Assembly (NCBI GenBank): GCA_951406725.2
Contig: OX597818.1
Span: forward strand, 5,890,001 to 5,954,000
Direction: 5' to 3'
DNA length: 64,000 bases
Source of the DNA: Octopus vulgaris
Taxonomy: Eukaryota
Below, piece after piece: positions 4,651 to 54,000 of the stretch; the first letter of the stretch is position 1; every line of letters starts with the position of its first letter. The notes under the pieces were generated by a model. That model ran no database searches, was not told the origin of the DNA, and saw only the letters and a program-made list of their open reading frames with translations. A program made the position numbers and the translations under genes.

Positions 4651-4709
<59 letters not shown>

Positions 4710-4734
4710 GATCTTTTGAGTACTACCAGCAAAA

Positions 4735-4915
4735 ATATTTTTTTCCTCTGTCTTCCCTTCTCGGTATCTTTCCTTCTCCTTGTTTCCGACGAAGAGCTCT
4801 GCTCGAAACGTTAAAGCCTCCTTCCCTTCTTTCCTGAGCGTCAAATAATACTTTAATTGTTCCACGTTCTCGCCTTGCTGTGTTTTTTTCTGTGTTTTCT
4901 TGTTTAGATTAACTA
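4735..4915 (+). mobile_element. PLE pseudo-LTR fragment (family A) with minimal HHR at ~4782-4816
   Basis: gttt-CCGACGA-a-GAGC tct GCTC-GAAAC-GTT-aaag; homolog of 3590-3800. Confidence 0.7.
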
Positions 4916-5262
4916 TACCACCCGCCTCACTAGCACCCACCATCGACTCTATCCCATCATCCACTCCTTCACCTGCACCTCCAGCAATATTATCTATTGC
5001 GTCTCTTGCTCTCTCTGCAATTCCTTGTACATCGGACAAACGGGACGCCGTTTGGCTGACCGGTTCGCGGAACACCTTCGTGACATCCACCTTGCGAACG
5101 ACACACCGGTCTCACGCCATTTCCGCTCCACCGGTCACTCCTTGCAACACCTATCTGTGTTCGGTTTGTCCTTACACAGAGGCCATCCGGATTCCCGTTT
5201 GCGCCGTGAACAGGAATTAATCTTCTCTCTTCGCTCTTATACGCCATTTGGTCTCAACTCTC
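4916..5262 (+). pseudogene. 5'-truncated Penelope-like element, GIY-YIG endonuclease domain
   Basis: In frame: FTCTSSNIIYCVSCSLCNSLYIGQTGRRLADRFAEHLRDI...PVSRHF...REQELIFSLRSYTPFGLN, the hallmark PLE GIY-YIG C-terminus. Confidence 0.92.
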
Positions 5263-5925
5263 CCCCCTCCTCATCTAACCCCCTCTCCCCCTCCTCACCT
5301 ATCCTTCCCCCCCGGACCCCTACTTCTTCAGTCCTTCATCCTTTCAACCCTACTGCCCTTCCCTTCTTCCCTCTTTCTCCCTCCCTCCTTCCCTCTTCCC
5401 CTTCCCTCTGCTCCCTCACTCCCCTTCTCTCTCCCTCTCCCCCTCTTTCCTCCTTCCCCCTCCCCCTCCTCTCCTCTTCCCCCCTCTCCTCTCCCTCTTA
5501 TTCCCCTCCACTTCTCCCCCCCTTCTCCCCCTCCCCCTCTTCTCACTACACCACACGACTTTACACATCACATCATACTAATACATACACCAACTAATAC
5601 ATACTAATACGTACTAATACATACTAATACATACTAATACATACACCAACCCTATACATACACACGTCCAGGCCCCTCATACGCACTTATACTCTCTCAT
5701 ACACACACACACACACTTATACATACTAATACGTACTAATACATACTAATACATACTAATACATACACCAACCCCATACATACGCCTGTCCAGACCTATC
5801 CTACGCACTAATACTCTCTCATACACACACACACACACACACACCCTTATACATACTAATACATACTAATACATACACCAACCCTATACATACACACGTC
5901 CAAACCCCTCCTACGCACTAATAGG
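5263..5925. repeat. Polypyrimidine tract (5263-5545) followed by ATACATACTA-type minisatellite and (CA)n, in the PLE 3' region
   Basis: C/T-only runs and tandem 10-mers are directly visible. Confidence 0.9.
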
Positions 5926-6093
5926 TGGTCATTCAACCCTATAATCAACCCTATTATCTCCTCTTATTTCACTCTCGCGTCTCATGTTTGATCTTTGACT
6001 TCTGGCTGAAATTAGATCGCCATGTTGATTCGTTAGTTACTGCACGCATTTTTTTTCTCTCCTTCTTTCTGTGTTTTTTTCTCTCTCTGTGTA

Positions 6094-6131
6094 TCTTTCT
6101 GTTGAAGAGCGTAGGCTCGAAACGTTAAAGA
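6094..6131 (+). ncRNA. Minimal HHR-like motif (family B, core CTGTTGA) in the 3' pseudo-LTR (~6000-6230) of the PLE at 4916
   Basis: tcttt-CTGTTGA-a-GAGC gtag GCTC-GAAAC-GTT-aaaga; 5-bp stem I; homolog at 33116-33153 (-). Confidence 0.65.
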
Positions 6132-6228
6132 CTTGTTTTATTTATATTTCCTGAGCGCCATACTAATACAATTGTTTGTTTGTTTTCCACCTGCCTTCGT
6201 CTTTTGTCTATTTTCATAAAGCTTCCCG

Positions 6229-6274
<46 letters not shown>

Positions 6275-30840: not shown

Positions 30841-31471
30841 CCTTTTCTACTCTAGCCACAAGGCCCGAAACTTTAAGAGAGGGGGCCAGTCGATTAGATC
30901 GATTCCAGTAAGCAACTGGTACATAGTTTATTGACCTTGAAAGGATTAAAGCCAGAGTGGTACTTATTTAATCGACCCCGAAAGGCTGAAAGGCAAAGTC
31001 GACCTCAGCGCAATTTGAACTCAGAACGTAGCGGCAGACGAAATACTTATTTCTTTACTACCCACAAGGGGCTAAACACAGAGAGAACAAACAAGGACAG
31101 ACAAACGTATTAAGTCGATTAGATCGACCCCAGTGTGTAACTGGTACTTATTTAATCGAGCCCGAAAGGATGAACGGCAAAGTGGACCTCGGCGGAATTT
31201 GAACTCAGAAAGTAACTGCAGATGAAATACCTATTTCTATTTCTTTACTACCCACAAGGGGCTAAACACAGAGGGGACAAACAAGGACAGACAAGCGGAT
31301 TAAGTTGATTACATTGACCCCAGTGCGTAACTGGTACTTCATTTATCGACCCCGAAAGGTTGAAAGGCAAAGTCGACCTCGGGGTAATTTGAACTCAGAA
31401 CGTAACGGCAGACGAAATAAGGAAACGCATTTCGCTCGGTGTACTAACGTGTCTGCCAGCTCGCCGCCTTA
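30841..31471 (-). mobile_element. Head-to-tail array of about three tRNA-derived SINE units
   Basis: Repeated atcgaccccgaaagg.tgaaaggcaaagtcgacctcggcggaatttgaactcagaac; full head (ccagctcgccgcctta) only at the right end. Confidence 0.9.
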
Positions 31472-32233: not shown

Positions 32234-32247
32234 CATATATATATATA

Positions 32248-32478
32248 CTTTATTTAAAAGCAGCAGAAATTCAACAAAACATGTTACTCTGAGTATCACG
32301 TTCCCGTTCGTCGGACAGTTTTTGTTAACAAAAACTGTCCGACGAACAGGAACGTGAGACTCAGAGTAACAGGTTTTGTTGAATTTCTGCTGCTTTTAAA
32401 TAAAGCATATTACTCTACACTTGGTATTTGAGTACTCATTTTTCCACCTTGTTTCACATTTATGTGTTTACTCCGGTA
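32248..32478 (+). mobile_element. Fold-back pLTR element (family C): loopless palindrome 32248-32405 plus tail, decayed HHR at 32335-32372 and its mirror
   Basis: ctgt-CCGACGA-ACaggaaCGT-GAgAC-tcaga-GTA-acag; centre gttaac at 32324-32329; third family fragment at ~60618-60690. Confidence 0.88.
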
Positions 32479-32690: not shown

Positions 32691-33026
32691 TGTGAGTTCT
32701 TTCCTTTTCGCCATTATTACGATACTACTTCATGTTGTCTCAGTACTGAATGAAGAAGCTAGCGTTTTGACACTTAAAAATGACAACTGATAAGATTATG
32801 GGAACATTTTAGCAGTATTTTGTGGCATAGAACATCATAAATTTATTCTGTACAAATACTGTTTTCACCCCTAAATATTTATAATTGTATATAAATTCAT
32901 TAGTTACTATAATTTATTGGTTTCTTTTGCATATTCTTAGTTTATATATCCCATTTATTTTCATTAGAAATTAAATAAATAAAGAATTTTGACATGAACG
33001 AATATTTATTCCCCCCCCCCTGTATC

Positions 33027-33224
33027 TAGGGAGAATTCACAAAAATCAAAAGACAAAGACAGGCGGTGTAGAAAACAAACAGATGTTTTAGTATAGCGTT
33101 CGGGAATTGAAAAATTCTTTAACGTTTCGAGCCTACGCCCTTCCACAGAAAGGAACACAGAAAGAAACGAGGAGAGAAACAAGGAGAGAAAAAATATGTG
33201 TAGTGGTTAGCGATCTATCATGAC

Positions 33225-33225
<1 letters not shown>
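33027..33225 (-). mobile_element. PLE pseudo-LTR fragment (family B) with minimal HHR-like motif at 33116-33153
   Basis: Minus strand: ccttt-CTGTGGA-a-GGGC gtag GCTC-GAAAC-GTT-aaaga. Confidence 0.72.
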
Positions 33226-33276
<51 letters not shown>

Positions 33277-33467
33277 GAAATTTACTGAAAAGCAAAAGAT
33301 GATGACAGGTGTATAGACAGCAAGCGGGTTGTTTTAGTTCGATGCTGGGGTATCAAACAGAAACGAACACGTAGAAATAAACAGAGGGAATATAAAAAAA
33401 AAACTTGTGGATTTTGCGCGATTGATCGTGGCGACTGATATATATATATATATATATATATATACTA

Positions 33468-33841
33468 CTCAGTTTCGAGCTATTTGACTCCTCTTCAGTC
33501 GCGAGGACATGCGTGCCAGGGAGATATCCAGAATGTACTACTGCTAACAATATATTGTAAACAAAGTGACAATTTATCACTGATTTGAAAGAAGCAAGGT
33601 AACTACTTTTAAAGTCTGAAGAAGAGATACAGTGGTAATATATATTAAATAATAAAGCCAGTCGCCATATCAAAGTGGCAGTTGAATGTTACTACTAATT
33701 TTACCCCTGGCAGATGCTCCACCAGCTGCTTATTGGTGCAACACCCTGCAGCCTTTATATACAATATATTGTTGAGTGGGGGAGCGAAACTCCTCCACCC
33801 TCTACCAGCTAAAAGGATCGCGAGACTGGCTCAGTTTCGAG
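33468..33841 (-). mobile_element. Circularly permuted 362-nt retrozyme-like monomer with an HHR split between its two ends
   Basis: 12-bp terminal direct repeat ctcagtttcgag (33468-33479 and 33830-33841); joining the ends rebuilds tcgcga-CTGAAGA-gGAG..CTC-GAAACTG-agc-CAGTC-tcgcga. Confidence 0.8.
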
Positions 33842-34314
33842 TTACATGAATATATGTATATCCACACACACATGCACATAAACACACACACGCACATAAA
33901 CACACATAGACAGACACACACATTGACATTATTGTAAATAACAGTTGATAAGTTAATATTTATTCAGCTGGAAGTTATAATGATTATTATACTAAGTTAA
34001 CCACCTTGTCGATAAAACTCAATATATGTTTTAATTAATGAACTTAACACACTTTGCACCTCTTGAATTAATATATATCTCAGGTTTTAAGCGTAAGATA
34101 TTTGATTTTAGTTAACAAGAACTAGTAATTTTATCGATGGTCTTAGAGCTGGAAGACCTATTGGATGGGTCACGTACTATATATTTAGCATAGTTGTTAA
34201 AAATCATCTAATTCTAAACTTTTTATTATTATTTATATTCATAATTCGTGTTTTCTTATTTCCTGCCAATGTCACATATAAAATGATGCATTGTATTTTC
34301 TAAACAAGGGGATA

Positions 34315-34677
34315 TCTTTATATATAAAAGTCAAGTTGTGTGTCTGTCTCCTACGATTTAGATTCCTAACTACTCCCACATTTTGCGGTACAGTATAACC
34401 AAAACCGGGTATCTTATAGTCGTGATTCATATCGAGCCCTTCTGGGTATTAGCGCGCGTCTACGATGAGTCTACGATTTTAAAAATAATTTACCATCACT
34501 TTTTTCCATTTTAATGCATTTTTTCGGTATTATATAAGGGAAGTAACTCTCTAAAAATGTCATTTTTTTTCCATTTTTAATGCATTTTGTTTTGCTATTT
34601 TTTGGTTATAACTCTCTAAAAATGCGTATATAGTTATTTCCCTTACAAACCCGAGCAACGCCGGGCGATACTGCTAG
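34315..34677 (+). mobile_element. Non-autonomous Helitron
   Basis: 5' TC(tttatatataaaa), subterminal hairpin cccgagcaacgccggg (34650-34665), 3' CTAG, inserted between A and T, no TSD. Confidence 0.85.
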
Positions 34678-46111: not shown

Positions 46112-49100
46112 AGTAGTTTTATTTTTTATAGCGTGCTTACACTTCACTACCGAGCGCAGCTCTGTGTGCCTTGGGTATGTGCTGTGATTTGTTGAGATGC
46201 TCTGATGGTTATTGTATGGAAAGTGTTCTGCGTAGGATGTATGCAGTGCCTAGTAGTGCAATTTTCTGTATGTTATATGTGTTTGTAAGTCCTGGTGTTT
46301 TTGTAATGTATTTGTCTGAATATTTTTTATCATGCCTAATGCACCTACTATGATAGGAATTGTTTCTGTTTTTAGATTCCACATTATGGTTACCTCCATT
46401 TCCAGGTCTTTGTATTTTGAAAGTTTCTCCATTTCTTTTAGAGACATGTTGTCACCTGCCGGTATTGATACATCAATTAGAAAGCATTTTTTTCCTTCAT
46501 GGTCTCTGACAACTATATCTGGTCTGTTGGCCTTAATTTCTCTATCTGTGTGTATCGGCATATCCCAGAATATGGTTGCTTTCTCGTTTTCTGTGACCTT
46601 TTCTGGTGTGTGCCTATACCATCTTTTTTCTGTTGTTATTCCATAACGTTGGCATAGCTTCCAGTGTATGTAGGTTCCAACTCTGTCATGTCTGTGAATA
46701 TATTCCTTCCGGGCAGCCAGAGATAATATGATTTATTGTTTCTTGTTCATCTCCACATATTCTGCAGTTACTTGTTATATTTCTTTTCATTACATGTTTT
46801 TGGTAATTTCTGGTGGGGAGGCTTTGGTCTTGTGCTGCAAGTAAAAATCCCTCTGTCTCTGCTTTGAGTCCTGAGCTTCTCAACCATTGCTGGGATTTTT
46901 CTTTGTCTATTTCTTTTGCATTTAGTTTAGTCCAGTATTTACTGTGGAGGGGTTTTTCTTGCCATCGTTTTATCATGGTTTTGGCTGTTCTAGTTTTAGT
47001 TTGGATTTCATTTGTTTTATAGCTTTTGTTGTTGTTTCTTCTTCTTCTTCTTCTTCTTCTTCTTCTTCTTCTTCTTCTTCTTCTTCTCCTTCTCTATATT
47101 TGTTAGGTGGTATGATTTCTTGTTTGTATTTGTCAGCTTCCTTAAATACTGAGAACAGTTTTTTGTTTTGCTCGTGTTTTGCCGCTATTTGTATCAGTTT
47201 TCCTTCCTTCTGAAGTAGATATTTTTGAAGTCCTATGGTGGTTATTTTATAGTAGTTTTCCAGCTGTATAAGGCCTCTACCACTTTCTATACGTTGTATA
47301 TATAGTCTTTCTATGTCAGATTTTGGGTGATGCATCCTAGACCCTGTCATTATTTTTCTTGTTTTCTTATCTATGTTGGTCAGTTCATTTAGTGTCCAGT
47401 TAAGGATATTGTAGCTGTAACTTATAACTAGGACAACTAAAGTGTTAATACCTATTATCTTGTTTTTAGCATTGAGCTCTGTTTTTAATATTGATCTAAC
47501 TCGTCTATAATATTCATTTTTTATTTCTCTTTCATTTGTATGTGTTGTGTCTTATCTAGTTCATGGATTCCTAAGTATGTGTAAGTTTGGCGTTGGTCTA
47601 ATTCTTTTATTTCATTGGTTTTATTTAGTGTGATGTTGCTACTCTTAACTAGTTTTCCTCTTTTCCTGGTTACTTTGGCACATTTTTCTAATCCAAATTT
47701 CATATCTATTTCTATGGTTAATCCATGAACTGTCTTTAATAGTGTTTCCAGCTGTTTGTCATTTGCAGCGTGTAGTTTTAGGTCATCCATACACGAGGGG
47801 CGTTCAATAAGTAATGCCCCTGATCCACTTCCCATAGCAGTAGAGCAACGAAACTTGGCACAGTCATTAGTCTTTTTCTACATAGGAACCAACCAGAGTT
47901 ACGCATTTCTCCCATCGTTTGATGCGGCTCTGGAGACCGTTTTTGTAGAAGAACCCAGCTTGGTCCTCCAACCTCAACGTGACTTCAGAAATCAAGGCTG
48001 CATCATCTGGGAAACGCTTTCCTTTCAAAAGCAACTTCATGGCAGGGAAGAGGTGAAAATCAGAGGGTGCAAGGTCAGGAAAGTAGGGGGATGGGGGAGG
48101 AGTTCATAGCCGCACGCCTGTGCTTCTGATCTGGCGACATCGAGTTGTGGACCGGAGCGTTGTCTTGCAGGAGGAGGATGCCTTTGCTGATCTTGCCCCG
48201 CCTCTTGATTTTGATAGCTTCTCTTAATTTCCTCAAAAGTGAAGCATAATAGGCTCCTGTAATTATGCTACCCTTTGCCAGGAAATCTGTCATCACTACT
48301 CCGTCCTGGTCTCAGAAGACTGTGAGCATAACCTTGTCAGCGGAGGGCTGCACCCTTGCCTTCTTTGGAGGAGGTGAGTCACGGTGTTTCCACTGCTTTG
48401 ACTGGGCTTTGGTCTCTGGATCATAGTGATGGACCCAGGTTTGATCCTGTGTAATCAGTCTTTTGAAAAATTTTGACTCATCTTGGCATATCTCCAAATT
48501 CATCCTCGAGCACTCGACGCGTTCTTGCTTCTGGAAAGGTGTGAGCAGCCTGGGAATCCATCTGGCAGATACCTTTTGCATATGCAAATGGTCATGAATG
48601 ATAGTTTCCACAGACCCGGTTCTAATCTTGACCTCATGGGCTATTTGGCGAATAATTATGCGTCGATCTTCCAAAATGGCAGCCTCAACTTGATGGACAG
48701 ATGCCTCATCAATGGCAGAAGGGGGCGACCAGATCTGGGAGCTGTTTCCACAGAGTTCCGATTATGTTTGAATTCACGATGCCAGCGTTTTACAAGGTCA
48801 TATGATGGGGCATCATCACCATAAGTTACTTTCATTTCATCAAAAGTCTCCCGTGGTGTGCGTCCTTTCAAATACAAAAACCGGATCACTGCTCGACACT
48901 CAACAGGCTCCATTTCACACTTGACTCAGTTCAAACACCTGTAAATCAGAAACCACAATTAGTTAAGAGCTGTAATTTGCTACTTAATCTATAGAGATAT
49001 AAAGAATTATACATGCAAAATTTCAGCTAGATCAAACAACTGCAAGTTGGTCGGGAGCATTACTTATTGAACGTCCCTCGTATAAAAGGTGGCTGATCGT

Positions 49101-50850
49101 TTTCCGTAACATTTATATCCGCATTCAGTTCTATTTAGCATATCAGATAGAGGTGATAGTGCCAAGCAGAAAAGGAGTGGAGAGAGAGTATCCCTGGAAT
49201 ATTCCTCTTCTAATGGGGATGGCTTTGGTTTTCATGAGTCCCTCTTTTGTTTGGAGCTGTAGCACTGTTTGCCATTTATTCATAGAGTGCCCAATGAATT
49301 TTATAATTGTTGGTGCTACTTTGTTAATGGCTAGTGTTTCGAGGATCCATGTGTGGGGGATGCTATCAAACGCCTTTTTGTAGTCAATCCAGGCCATACT
49401 GAGGCCTTTCTTCCTTCTGTGGCTGTCTTCAGTTATGGCTTTATTGATCATTAGTTGATCTTTACAGCCGTATGAGCCTTTGCGACATCCTTTCTGCTCT
49501 TCTGGAATCAGGTTGTTTTCGTCCATGTACTTGTTCAACCTTTGCGATATCACTGCAGTAAATGCCTTGTACATTGTAGGGAGACAGGTTATTGGTCTGT
49601 AGTTTTCTGGTTTTGCTGTCTCATTTGATTTGGGAATTAATATGGTTTTCTCCTTCGTGAGCCATTCAGGCATTGTCTCTGGCTCTGCTAGTATGTTGTT
49701 AACATTTTCAGCCAGCTTTTTGTGCATTCCTGTTAGATATTTCAACCAGAAGTTGGGGATCTTGTCATGCCCAGGTGCCTTCCAGTTGCTTAGTCTTTGC
49801 AGTGCCTAGGTGACCTCTTCAGTTGTTATGGGGGTCCAAAGTTGCCCAGATGCTGAGTTTGTTATTTCAATACTCCTTTTTTTTGGTTGTTCGTTCGCCG
49901 ACCATATTTCTCTCCAGAATTCTTCCACTTCTGCCGTTGGTGCTGCAGTGATTTCTATTTTATTTTTGCCAAGTTCTTGGTAGAACTTTTGGGGGTTGGA
50001 GTTGAACTTTTTGTTTTGTTCAAAGAAGCGCTGGCGTTTCTCGTACCGGCGGATCCTTTGTGCTTTGGCAAGGATATCTGCTTTAGCTTTTCTTTTATCT
50101 CAGGTAAATCTTTTTGTGTGGTTGTATTTGCGGAGTATTTTTGTTTTCTTTTTGTTGCTCAGTAGCGTTGATTGTCTACTGATTTCATTAAGAATCGACA
50201 GATCTTTTCTTATTTTTTGTATTTTGTTTTGGATGTTATTTATCCACAGGGTTTGTTTGGGTAGTGGTACTCCTGTTTGGACGGGTTTGAGTGAGTATCC
50301 AGCTTCTTTTGTGGCTGCAGTGGCTGCTGCGTATACTAAGTCATTTAGCTCAGTGATATCGCTTTTTGTTTCAGTGGCTATTAGTTCCGTGACGGCTAGG
50401 TTAATGCTGTTTATAATTGGTGTTGTTGTTTCGTCTATTTTGATTTTTGGGAGGTATGGTCGGTGGTCCATTTTGAGCTCTGTGGTTTTTAGTTCTTTGA
50501 ATATTCTACTTTTTATATTATCATATTCATTAGGCTCCCCTTCATTGTTTCCAGGTTTTAGATTTGTGTCGTTTTCTTTCTTATCTGTATGTTTGTTTGT
50601 CGTGTTGGGAGTGTTACATTTGTCTTCTTCGTGTTTTACTGTTTCAGTGTTTATATTATTGGGCATTGTTGTTTGGCTTCTATCTACATTTTCCTGGTGT
50701 ATTTTTTCTTTTAGATGTTCTATTTCTATTTCTGATATTTTTTTTGCGTTGAGAATATATCTCCGTATATTTGCCAGTTTGTTAGGGTTCATTGCTATAT
50801 CCAAGTCTATATTTATGTTGTTTTCCTTCCATATTTTATATGTATGTGTT
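46112..50850 (-). mobile_element. Dong/R4-clade non-LTR retrotransposon (RT, CCHC, RLE), 5'-truncated and disrupted
   Basis: NYRPITCLPTMYK, EQKGCRKG, AWIDYKKAFDSIPH, RRGIFQG, (Y)MDDLKL, YLGI, CRICG..ETINHIISGC, RPDIVV..LIDVSIP..EKLSKYKDL; (TAA)n on both sides. Confidence 0.95.
47794..49080 (-). mobile_element. Full-length mariner nested in the Dong/R4 reverse transcriptase
   Basis: TIRs cgaggggcgttcaataagtaatgc / gcattacttattgaacgtccctcg; transposase from 48913 (MEPVECRAVIRFL, WIPRLL, TWVHHYDPETK, QDNAPVH) with frameshifts. Confidence 0.95.
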
Positions 50851-50872
50851 GTTGTGTTTTCTTCTTATTCTT

Positions 50873-50982
<110 letters not shown>

Positions 50983-51009
50983 CATTATTATTGTTATTAT
51001 TACATCATG

Positions 51010-54000
51010 CAGTAGTCTTATTTTTTCACGTGCTTTCACTACTGAGCGCAACTCAGTGTGCTTTGGGGATGTGCTGTGGTTTGTTGAGATGCTCTTACAG
51101 TTACTATATTGAAAGTGTTTTACGTAGGATGTGTGCGGTGACTAGAGCTATTTTCTGTATGCTATATATATTTGTTAGTCCTGGTGTCTTTGTTATGTAT
51201 TTGAATATTTTTTTAATCATAGCTAATGCACCTATTATGATAGGAATTATTTCTATTTTAAGACTCCTCATTCGAGTTACCTCTATTTCCAGGTCTTTTT
51301 ATTGTGATTGTTTCTTCATTTCTTTTAGAGAAACGTTGTCATCTGTTGATATTGATACAACAATGAGAAAGCATGTTTTCTTGATGATCTCTGACTACTA
51401 TATCTGGCCTATTGGCCTTAATTTATCTGTATGCATGTATTGGCATATCCCATAGCATGGTTGCTTTCTCATTTTCTGTGATTTTTTCTGGAATGTGCCT
51501 ATATCATCTTTTTTCTTTTGTTATTCCATTATGTTGGCATAGCTCCCAGTGCATGTAGGTTTCAACTCCGTCGTGTTTGTGAATATATTCTTCCTTAGCA
51601 AGGAGTTGGCAGCGAGAGACAATATGATTTATTATTTCTTGTCCTTTTCCACATATTCTGCAGTAACTTGTTATGTTTCTTTTCATTATATGTTTTTGGT
51701 AATTTCTGGTGGAGTGGTTTTGGTCTTGTGCTGCAATTAATATATCCCTTCAGTCTCTGCTCGAGTCATGAGCTTTTCAACAATTGTTGGGTTTTTGTTT
51801 TTGTCTATTCCTTTTGCGTTTAATTTAACCCAGTATTTGCCTTGAAGAGGCTTTTCTTGTCATCGTTTTATCATGATTCGCTGCTGCTCTAGCTTTAGTC
51901 TGGATTGCAGTTGTTATACAGCTTTTGTTTCTTCTTCTTTTTCTTCATAGTTGTTACGTAGTATGATTTCTTGTTTGGATTTGTGTGCTTCCTTAAAGAC
52001 TGAATTTTGTTTTTTTTCCTGTTTTGTGGCTATTTGTATTAGTTTTCTTTGCTTCTGAAGTAGGTATTTTTGTAGACCTATGGCGGTTATTTTGAAATAG
52101 TTTTCTAGCTGTATAAGACCTCTACCGCCTTCTATGCGTTGTGCATTTAATATTTCTATGTCAAATTGTGGGTAGTACATACTAAATGATGTCACTATTT
52201 TACTTGTTTTTCTGTCTATTTTGATATTGTAGCTGTAACTTATAACTGGGACGGCTACAGTTTTGTTACCTCTTATCTTGTTTTCCGCATTGAGCTTTAT
52301 TTTCAGTATTAATTTAACTCTTCTATATGAATATTTAAAGAAATTTTCTCTTTCATTTGTATGTGTTGTATCGTATCTAGTCCATTGATTCCTAAGTATC
52401 TGAATGTCTGGCTTTGGTCTAATTCTCTTATTTCATTTGCTTTATCTAGTTTGATGTTGCTACTATTAACTAGTTTTCTTCTTTTCAAGGTTACTTTGGC
52501 ACATTTTTCTAAAATAAATTTCATGTTTATTTTTTTGGTAAATCCATGTATTGTCTGTAATAGTGTTGCCAGTTGTTTATCATTTGTAGCGTATGGTTTT
52601 AGGTCATCCATATATAAGAGTTTTTCCATAACAGGTGTATCCACCTCCAGTTCTGTTTAGTTCGTCAGATAAAGGTGTCAGTGCCACACAGAAAAGAAGC
52701 GTGTCTCCCTCTTCTAATGGAGATGGTTTTGATTTTTATGTATTTCTCTATTGTCTGGAGCTGTGGTACTGTCTTCCATTTATTCATGGAATGTATTATA
52801 TATTTTATGATTATTGGTGCTACCTTGTTCATGGGTAGGGTTTCTAGGATCAATGTGTGGGGAATACTATCAAAAAGCCTTTCGGTAATCGATCCAGGCC
52901 ATACTTATACCCTTCTTTTTTCTGCGGCTGTCTTCAATTATGACTTTATTGAGCATTAGTTGATCTTTACAGCCATATGAGTCCTTGCAGCATCCCTTCT
53001 GCTCTTCTGGAAACAGGTTGTTTTCTTCCAGATGTTTTCTCATTCTCTGCGATATTATTGCAGTAGATGCTTTGTAAAATTGTAGATAGACATGTTATTG
53101 AACTGTAATTTTGTAAATTTGCCGTTTCAGTGGATTTGGGGATTAAGATAGATTTTCCTTCTGTGAGCCATTCAGACATTGAATCTGGATCTGTTAGTAT
53201 GTCATTAAATTTCTCAGCCAGCTTTTTGTGTGTTTCTGTCAGATATTTTAACCAGACTTCGGGGATCTTATCGTGCCCGGGTGCCTTCCATTTGTTTAGT
53301 TTTTGCAGAGCCTGAGTGATCTCGTCAGTTGTTATATGGGTCCAGAGCTGTTTAGGTGCTGGGTTCATTGTTTTGAAAGGCATTTTCCTTCGCCGACCAT
53401 ATTTGCTTCCAAAATTCTTCCAGTTCTTCTGCTGTTGGTGCTACATTGATGTCTATTTTATTTTTGCCAAGTTCTTACTAGAATCTTTTGGGGCTAGAGT
53501 CAAACTGTTTGTTTTGTTCAAAGAATAGTTGGCGTTTATCATACCGGTGGATTCTTTGTGCTTTGGCGAGAATATCTTCCTTTAGCAATTGTTTTACATC
53601 AGGTATACCTTTTTCTGTATTTTTTTCTTTATACAGTATGTTTGTTCTCTTCTTGTTGCTTAGTAGTTTTGATTGTCTACTGGTTTTGTTAAGGATTGAC
53701 AGATCTTTTCTGTTGTTTTCTATCTTTTCTGGATATTATTTACCCACAGGGTTTGTTTGTGTGGTGGCACTCCTGTTTCGATGGGTTTGAGGGAATATCC
53801 AGCTTGTTTTGTGACCACGGCGGCTGCTGCATATATTATATCATTTAGCTTGGACATGTTGACATTTGTTTATGTGGTTATTAGTTCTGTGACGGCCGGG
53901 TTCATGCTCTTTAATACTGATGTTGTTTTAGTATCAATTTTAATTTTTGGGAGGTACAATCGGTGGCCCATGCTGAGATCTGTGGCTTTCATTTCTTTGA

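Follow-up and report, generated by a model that had tools for sequence, protein, structure and literature searches.

A decayed non-LTR retrozyme copy in the Octopus vulgaris genome, likely inserted at a TA microsatellite by Penelope-like retrotransposon enzymes

A 362-nt repeat copy with a split hammerhead

The window, i.e., the whole stretch of 64,000 nucleotides of the Octopus vulgaris genome that was analyzed, carries a repeat copy on its minus strand that runs from 33841 to 33468 and consists of one 362-nt unit plus a 12-nt exact terminal overlap. Unit coordinates are given below as cN, which corresponds to window position 33842-N. The copy and its 3' junction comprise the following features:

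33468..33841, minus strand: decayed copy covering 1.04 units of a non-coding hammerhead repeat with a 362-nt unit (from the sequence and the family consensus)
33830..33841, minus strand: first copy of the overlap, with the end of stem II, GAAA and the start of stem III (sequence, direct repeat)
33818..33838, minus strand: 3' half of the hammerhead, with GAAA, stem III (3-nt loop), GUC and the 3' strand of stem I (sequence, alignment)
33473..33504, minus strand: 5' half of the hammerhead, with the 5' strand of stem I, CUGAAGA, an extra base, the 4-bp stem II with its CAAAUA loop, and GAAA (sequence, consensus comparison)
33464..33479, minus strand: second copy of the overlap, exact to 33468 and in agreement with the consensus to 33467 (or to 33464, c17, allowing for the loss of one base)
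33438..33464, no strand: (TA)n microsatellite at the 3' junction, the likely target (sequence)

The minus strand starts at 33841 with CTCGAAACTGAG-CCAGTC-TCGCGA. It ends with TCGCGA (33504-33499), CTGAAGA (33498-33492), a G, GAGT-CAAATA-GCTC and GAAACTGAG, which extends to 33468. Against the family consensus, the overlap is 12 nt when counted exactly and 13-17 nt when decay is taken into account. The 3' end of the copy accordingly lies at c13, or at c17 if one lost base is allowed, which is 1-5 nt before the predicted cut.

A type I hammerhead is split between the two ends of the copy. The joined halves contain all 11 invariant core letters and the GUC triplet, with a 6-bp stem I formed by the palindrome TCGCGA, a 4-bp stem II (GAGT/GCTC) capped by the CAAAUA loop, CUGAAGA, one extra base, GAAA and a 4-bp stem III. 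The predicted cut falls between 33824 and 33823. Of these elements, a preliminary description of the locus had proposed the split hammerhead, the 362-nt unit, the 12-nt terminal overlap and the palindromic stem I, all of which were borne out by the sequence and by the spacing of the direct repeat, which is 362. An Rfam search of the window gave no match at gathering scores, and a search around the element with E values up to 10 found no hammerhead, in keeping with the split motif of this copy. An intact sister copy gave a weak alignment with HH9 (14.8 bits versus a gathering score of 52).

Elsewhere in the family, 80 arms span the ribozyme junction unbroken and 31 of them keep the whole core; core letters are kept at 0.93 in the junction-spanning arms, versus 0.80 for other non-CpG letters. 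The family unit is thus predicted from its sequence to carry a self-cutting type I hammerhead. The extra base, located between A9 and G10.1, is G in the window copy and U in 65 of 80 family copies. In this respect the octopus ribozyme resembles the hammerheads of Penelope-like elements (PLEs), in which a base between positions 9 and 10.1 is conserved (PMC4209133). It has the full form, with stems I, II and III of 6, 4 and 4 bp, in contrast to the minimal form usual in animal PLEs.

Upstream of the window copy lies a simple repeat. Downstream, the 3' end is joined directly to the (TA)n run, beyond which a different repeat family begins. We considered whether the ribozyme continues past the TA run, where TCAGTC is found at 33437, and rejected this; TCAGTC opens the other family, copies of which elsewhere in the genome start with the same CAGTCGCC. 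Because the downstream sequence belongs to a different repeat family, the overlap is part of the unit itself. It is no target duplication within a pre-existing hammerhead element, which the preliminary description had named among the findings that would overturn its reading. Inspection of the sequence around the copy revealed no evident target-site duplication, and (TA)n ends blur such duplications.

The window copy shares 307 of 362 bases (85%) with the family consensus. Exact or near-exact pieces of it, 94-158 nt long, occur in public-run contigs from three organisms (contigs from four runs), and no contig of those four runs bridged one of its junctions. Hundreds of relatives have the same period and motif, so its arrangement is not due to chance. 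The window copy is a worn, atypical member of an old, scattered family, and its split ribozyme is an individual oddity rather than a family trait.

The family and the anatomy of its insertion ends

The family search covered the window's own 2.8-Gb genome and returned 607 first-look candidates, the best 40 of which were scored and gave 76 matches. A 362-nt consensus was built by script from 55 other loci. The median identity of arms longer than 150 nt to this consensus is 84% (maximum 92%), and such a median indicates that the family is old. The unit is short and non-coding, with a GC content of 45%, a longest ATG frame of 17 aa and no LTR features, and its head-to-tail period was demonstrated for the family. 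Two preferred 3' ends were found, both of which are internal in the window copy:

33627..33657, minus strand: site A (c185-215), the first preferred 3' end (54 of 143 arms; 125 of 343 arms)
33585..33614, minus strand: site B (c228-257), the second preferred 3' end, ~45-50 nt past A (54 of 143 arms at c230-257; 109 of 343 arms)

Together, A and B account for the 3' ends of 108 of the 143 arms (89 distinct loci). The 5' ends of the same arms are scattered, every 20-nt bin from c1 to c360 being occupied. The 89 loci contain 30 back-to-back arm pairs, 13 of which join A with B, and no pairs facing each other with their 3' ends. A microsatellite follows 57 of the 108 A or B ends and 6 of the 35 other 3' ends, and it precedes 14 of the 143 5' ends. 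As a control for selection by similarity, we collected every exact match to a 17-letter ribozyme motif, 82 in total. Of these arms, 47 have their 3' end at A or B (P about 1e-10). The ribozyme is intact in 81, which cross the cut site, and no arm continues into another unit downstream. Termination at the cut site was rejected as a common feature of the copies, since it was seen in one arm of the 82, at c17.

The preliminary description had suggested looking for variable permutation points among the copies and for 362-bp tandem arrays. Neither received support: the 3' ends fall mostly at two fixed sites, and in an extended set of 343 distinct arms (204 loci) two arms end inside the ribozyme and none reaches two full units. 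The longest arm is 1.91 units. Two ribozyme sites are covered by at least five arms, with lengths of 1.70-1.91 units, and when a 1.9-unit query was used, none of the best 40 of 2,076 candidates, which were scored, contained a longer array. Two further loci are recorded here. At L177:451-822 (G000:C5, near 124186250), a second solo permuted monomer runs from c53 to c62 over 372 nt, with a 10-nt overlap and an intact internal ribozyme. At L004:1437-2574, a TA run is flanked by an inverted duplication that comprises an insertion together with its 3' flank.

The marks described for PLEs are 5' truncation, partial tandems, an inverted copy at the 5' end, a 30-40-bp tail and a bias toward microsatellites (PMC8557442). 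The octopus family shows partial tandems, an inverted 5' arm, a tail-like second end and microsatellite targets, and it shares 5' truncation with the PLE terminal repeats as well. Its second end, ~45-50 nt further along, is similar to the 30-40-bp PLE tail. The end anatomy therefore likely points to insertion by PLE enzymes, although the unit, unlike PLEs, has no open reading frame. We infer a PLE partner from this anatomy rather than from an identified element.

The search for a partner covered one young PLE family. The genome holds a young, abundant element with RT and GIY-YIG domains (16,218 candidates, with 96-98% identity among the best); these domains were read by eye, and the Pfam match to GIY-YIG has an E value of 0.001, below its cut-off. 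No similarity between the unit and this young PLE was found at 30 loci with 1.5-kb flanks (best E value 0.10). A survey of 237 arms at 164 loci revealed no RT or GIY-YIG sequence attached in sense upstream of an arm. Flanks common to several of these loci consist of small groups of simple repeats and of repeats that we take to be SINE-like. GIY-YIG fragments are present in the flanks of five loci, in no case directly upstream of an arm in its sense.

The window itself contains a 5'-truncated piece of the young PLE at 4700-6230 on the plus strand, from a family with thousands of 96-98% identical copies. Within this piece, the GIY-YIG frame (4908-5597) is preceded by a small hammerhead-like motif with a CCGACGA core near 4785 and followed by an end similar to a terminal repeat, which has another hammerhead-like motif near 6100 and is joined to (TA)n.

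Fold of the unit and comparison with known retrozymes

The circular consensus was predicted to fold at -147.5 kcal/mol, compared with -101.2 +/- 5.6 kcal/mol for 40 shuffled sequences (z -8.25), with stem I extended into a long rod. In the fold of the cleaved monomer, c19-90 pairs with c278-345. The two strands of the rod correspond to the following positions in the window:

33752..33823, minus strand: strand 1 of the long rod extending stem I (consensus fold; 43 of 57 rod pairs are kept in the window copy)
33499..33564, minus strand: strand 2 of the rod (consensus fold, covariation, comparison with the window copy)

The antisense consensus folds nearly as well relative to its own shuffles (z -8.0). 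The consensus is highly self-paired, and this stable fold is lost in the window monomer (z -1.2).

We used 71 of the 80 junction-spanning rows for a covariation analysis, after excluding nine that aligned poorly or had large deletions; the structure used was that of the consensus itself. In these rows, 83.7% of the cells pair. Changes on both sides of a pair occur in 87 cells versus 60.3 in shuffled data, a number reached in none of 500 shuffles, and relatedness among the 71 rows may inflate this count. One rod pair takes six pair types. Covarying pairs (24 versus 22.0; 135 of 500 shuffles) and pair types (77 versus 74; 99 of 500 shuffles) were not above the shuffles, and RNAalifold returned no consensus structure on the 71 decayed junction rows. 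These results give moderate support to the suggestion that the subfamily masters kept the rod.

The proposal that the locus holds a retrozyme-like non-coding hammerhead unit is supported by the ribozyme, the size, the lack of coding capacity and the fold. Metazoan non-LTR retrozymes were described by Cervera and de la Pena (2020; PMC7229834), and the repeats of Mytilus galloprovincialis are 350-390 bp long. The octopus family resembles them in its type I hammerhead, its non-coding 362-nt unit with a GC content of about 45%, its self-paired fold, its many dispersed copies, its head-to-tail period and the presence of PLEs in the same genome. However, the full-unit dimers and multimers of the published tandem retrozymes were not found among the 343 octopus arms, and the family further differs in having two fixed 3' ends and inverted second arms and in being old and decayed. 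Li, Clavereau and Pollet (2026; 10.64898/2026.07.22.740005) regard non-LTR retrozymes as non-autonomous PLE derivatives with units of 51-972 bp. The octopus unit falls within this range, and its monomers are likewise scattered over chromosomes with a proposed PLE link. In contrast to the elements in the accessible text of that study, in which no mollusc is sampled and insertion ends are not described, the octopus unit has no sequence link to a PLE terminal repeat, as judged from one young PLE family.

The words "Octopus" and "cephalopod" are absent from the main text of PMC7229834, and our literature search, with subscription journals and preprint supplements outside it, found no paper on a cephalopod retrozyme family. 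Most likely, the octopus repeats represent a new, extinct family of an already known kind, the metazoan non-LTR retrozyme. In published work, the copying of animal retrozymes from circles and the enzyme used are still mostly inferred (PMC7229834), and Li and colleagues state that their own evidence on the life cycle is limited (10.64898/2026.07.22.740005). The octopus family adds an insertion anatomy that points to PLEs and two countable tests of the template, namely, stops after one turn and stops at a second cut. It is old and noisy, so younger families would be better material, and the single window copy decides nothing.

The template of reverse transcription and neighboring repeats

We consider it probable that the window copy is a decayed copy of a non-LTR retrozyme that was inserted by Penelope-like retrotransposon enzymes at TA microsatellites. 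In the proposed mechanism, the template would be an RNA with more than one unit's sequence, either a circle or a partly cleaved linear multimer. Reverse transcription would be primed at a nicked (TA)n site, in most cases with site A or B as its starting point, and the other DNA end would often prime a second arm. For the window copy, the simplest reading of its end as a primary one is that priming occurred unusually, within 1-5 nt of the cut site, as would happen if a self-cleaved RNA were used from its 3' terminus. Synthesis of one unit and a few more bases across the uncut or religated site would then have left the ribozyme split. The copy is a fossil that would not release a monomer on its own.

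The preliminary description had envisaged reverse transcription just over once around a circular or multimeric RNA. Part of this claim is upheld. A sample anchored on a motif near site A comprised 99 arms (99 of 105 matches were recovered), and together the motif samples contained 127 A- or B-ended arms out of 170. The first cut site is crossed by 43 of 48 arms, which indicates that the template was not a cleaved linear monomer but contained more than one unit or was circular. An accumulation of 5' ends at this site was likewise considered and rejected, as the 5 of 48 arms that stop there correspond to background. The single turn did not hold up in the same way: the one-turn signal is weak, and because arm lengths vary continuously, a single turn around a circle cannot be read from one copy of 1.04 units. 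A circular and a linear template appear about equally credible for the family, and both may apply.

One tentative reading is a closed 362-nt circle on which the enzyme tends to stop just past one turn, the window copy being the footprint of such a turn. Consistent with it, the arms cross the first cut site without extra stopping, and 8 of 24 arms at risk stop at 1.00-1.07 units, compared with a background of 0.148 (P 0.018). The permuted monomer at L177 and the circles formed by mussel retrozymes of similar size (PMC7229834) fit this reading as well. Stops at an arm's own start site (9 of 31) outnumber those at the other site (4 of 32), but this matched-site test is not significant (one-sided P 0.09, or 0.24 when two blurred ends are left out). 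Both preferred sites are AT-rich and draw later insertions, which confounds the one-turn excess, and five of the six other off-site near-monomers are explained by later insertion, internal deletion or fold-back. Moreover, a circle does not predict that no arm reaches two units, nor that four of six arms stop at the second cut site.

These second-site stops are what would be expected from a linear RNA of less than two units, transcribed from a master copy that, like PLE terminal repeats, is a partial tandem, a possibility to which we attach similarly modest confidence. Here, the upstream hammerhead would cut and create the 5' end, and the freed 5' strand would pair within the first unit, holding the downstream hammerhead uncut; arms should then read across one cut site and frequently terminate by run-off at the following one. 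Stops at c11-27 were found in four of six arms at the second site versus 5 of 39 at the first (Fisher P 0.010), in a test that is post hoc with n=6. The length of the longest arm (1.91 units) agrees with this reading, as does the cleaved-monomer fold, and the five A- or B-ended arms extending beyond the second site have their starts at c282-332, all of them within the upstream strand of the rod. However, several arms cross the second site, the ribozyme structure could stall the enzyme on a circle too, and later insertions may have broken old arrays.

Somewhat doubtful is the suggestion that the window copy is a longer ordinary arm, trimmed by deletion or by neighboring insertions into the TA tract, with an accidental 12-nt overlap. 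Several observations would suit later damage. Only 2 of the 343 arms, the window copy and L015, have their 3' end at c10-20; roughly one third of the arms terminate away from A and B, frequently next to SINE-like or Helitron-like repeats; a further repeat borders the TA run of the window copy; and arm lengths are continuous. Against it, the window copy ends 1-5 nt from the predicted cut and passes straight into (TA)n like primary ends, and L015 likewise ends at c17.

It is an unlikely idea that the fossil copies record a PLE enzyme handling three processing states of one ribozyme RNA, with arms of exactly one turn from either start site deriving from a circle, second-cut run-offs from a linear form whose 5' end was made by the ribozyme while the rod blocked the next one, and rare copies such as that in the window from priming at the freshly cut 3' end. 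If true, the statistics of genomic ends would provide a direct read-out of retrozyme RNA intermediates.

Very improbable is the view, raised as a potential objection in the preliminary description, that the copies are terminal-repeat fragments of a long autonomous PLE: the end anatomy is of the PLE type (PMC8557442) and retrozymes match PLE terminal repeats in Xenopus (10.64898/2026.07.22.740005), but in the octopus arms successive units follow each other head to tail beyond the arm's own 3' end point, with nothing between them, and no long PLE body is attached to the 237 arms surveyed, the flanks common to loci and the five GIY-YIG fragments being of the kinds described above.

Several other repeats lie in the window. 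Two TA-flanked pieces of an abundant repeat resembling a PLE terminal repeat are found on the minus strand at 33274-33437 (655 candidates in the genome) and at about 33010-33226. The latter contains a degenerate hammerhead-like motif; the opening 9-letter motif of the former is the reverse complement of the sequence just before site A, which may be due to chance. A fold-back insertion at 32243-32410 has 84-nt arms that are 95% complementary, with no spacer, and lies beside a long TA run, and a SINE-like 190-nt unit is present in 2.5 tandem copies at 30958-31419. The segment at 34310-34460 presumably resembles a Helitron 5' end. Broken frames of a non-LTR retrotransposon, RT-like and endonuclease-like as read by eye, are located on the minus strand at 46250-53440 among trinucleotide repeats.
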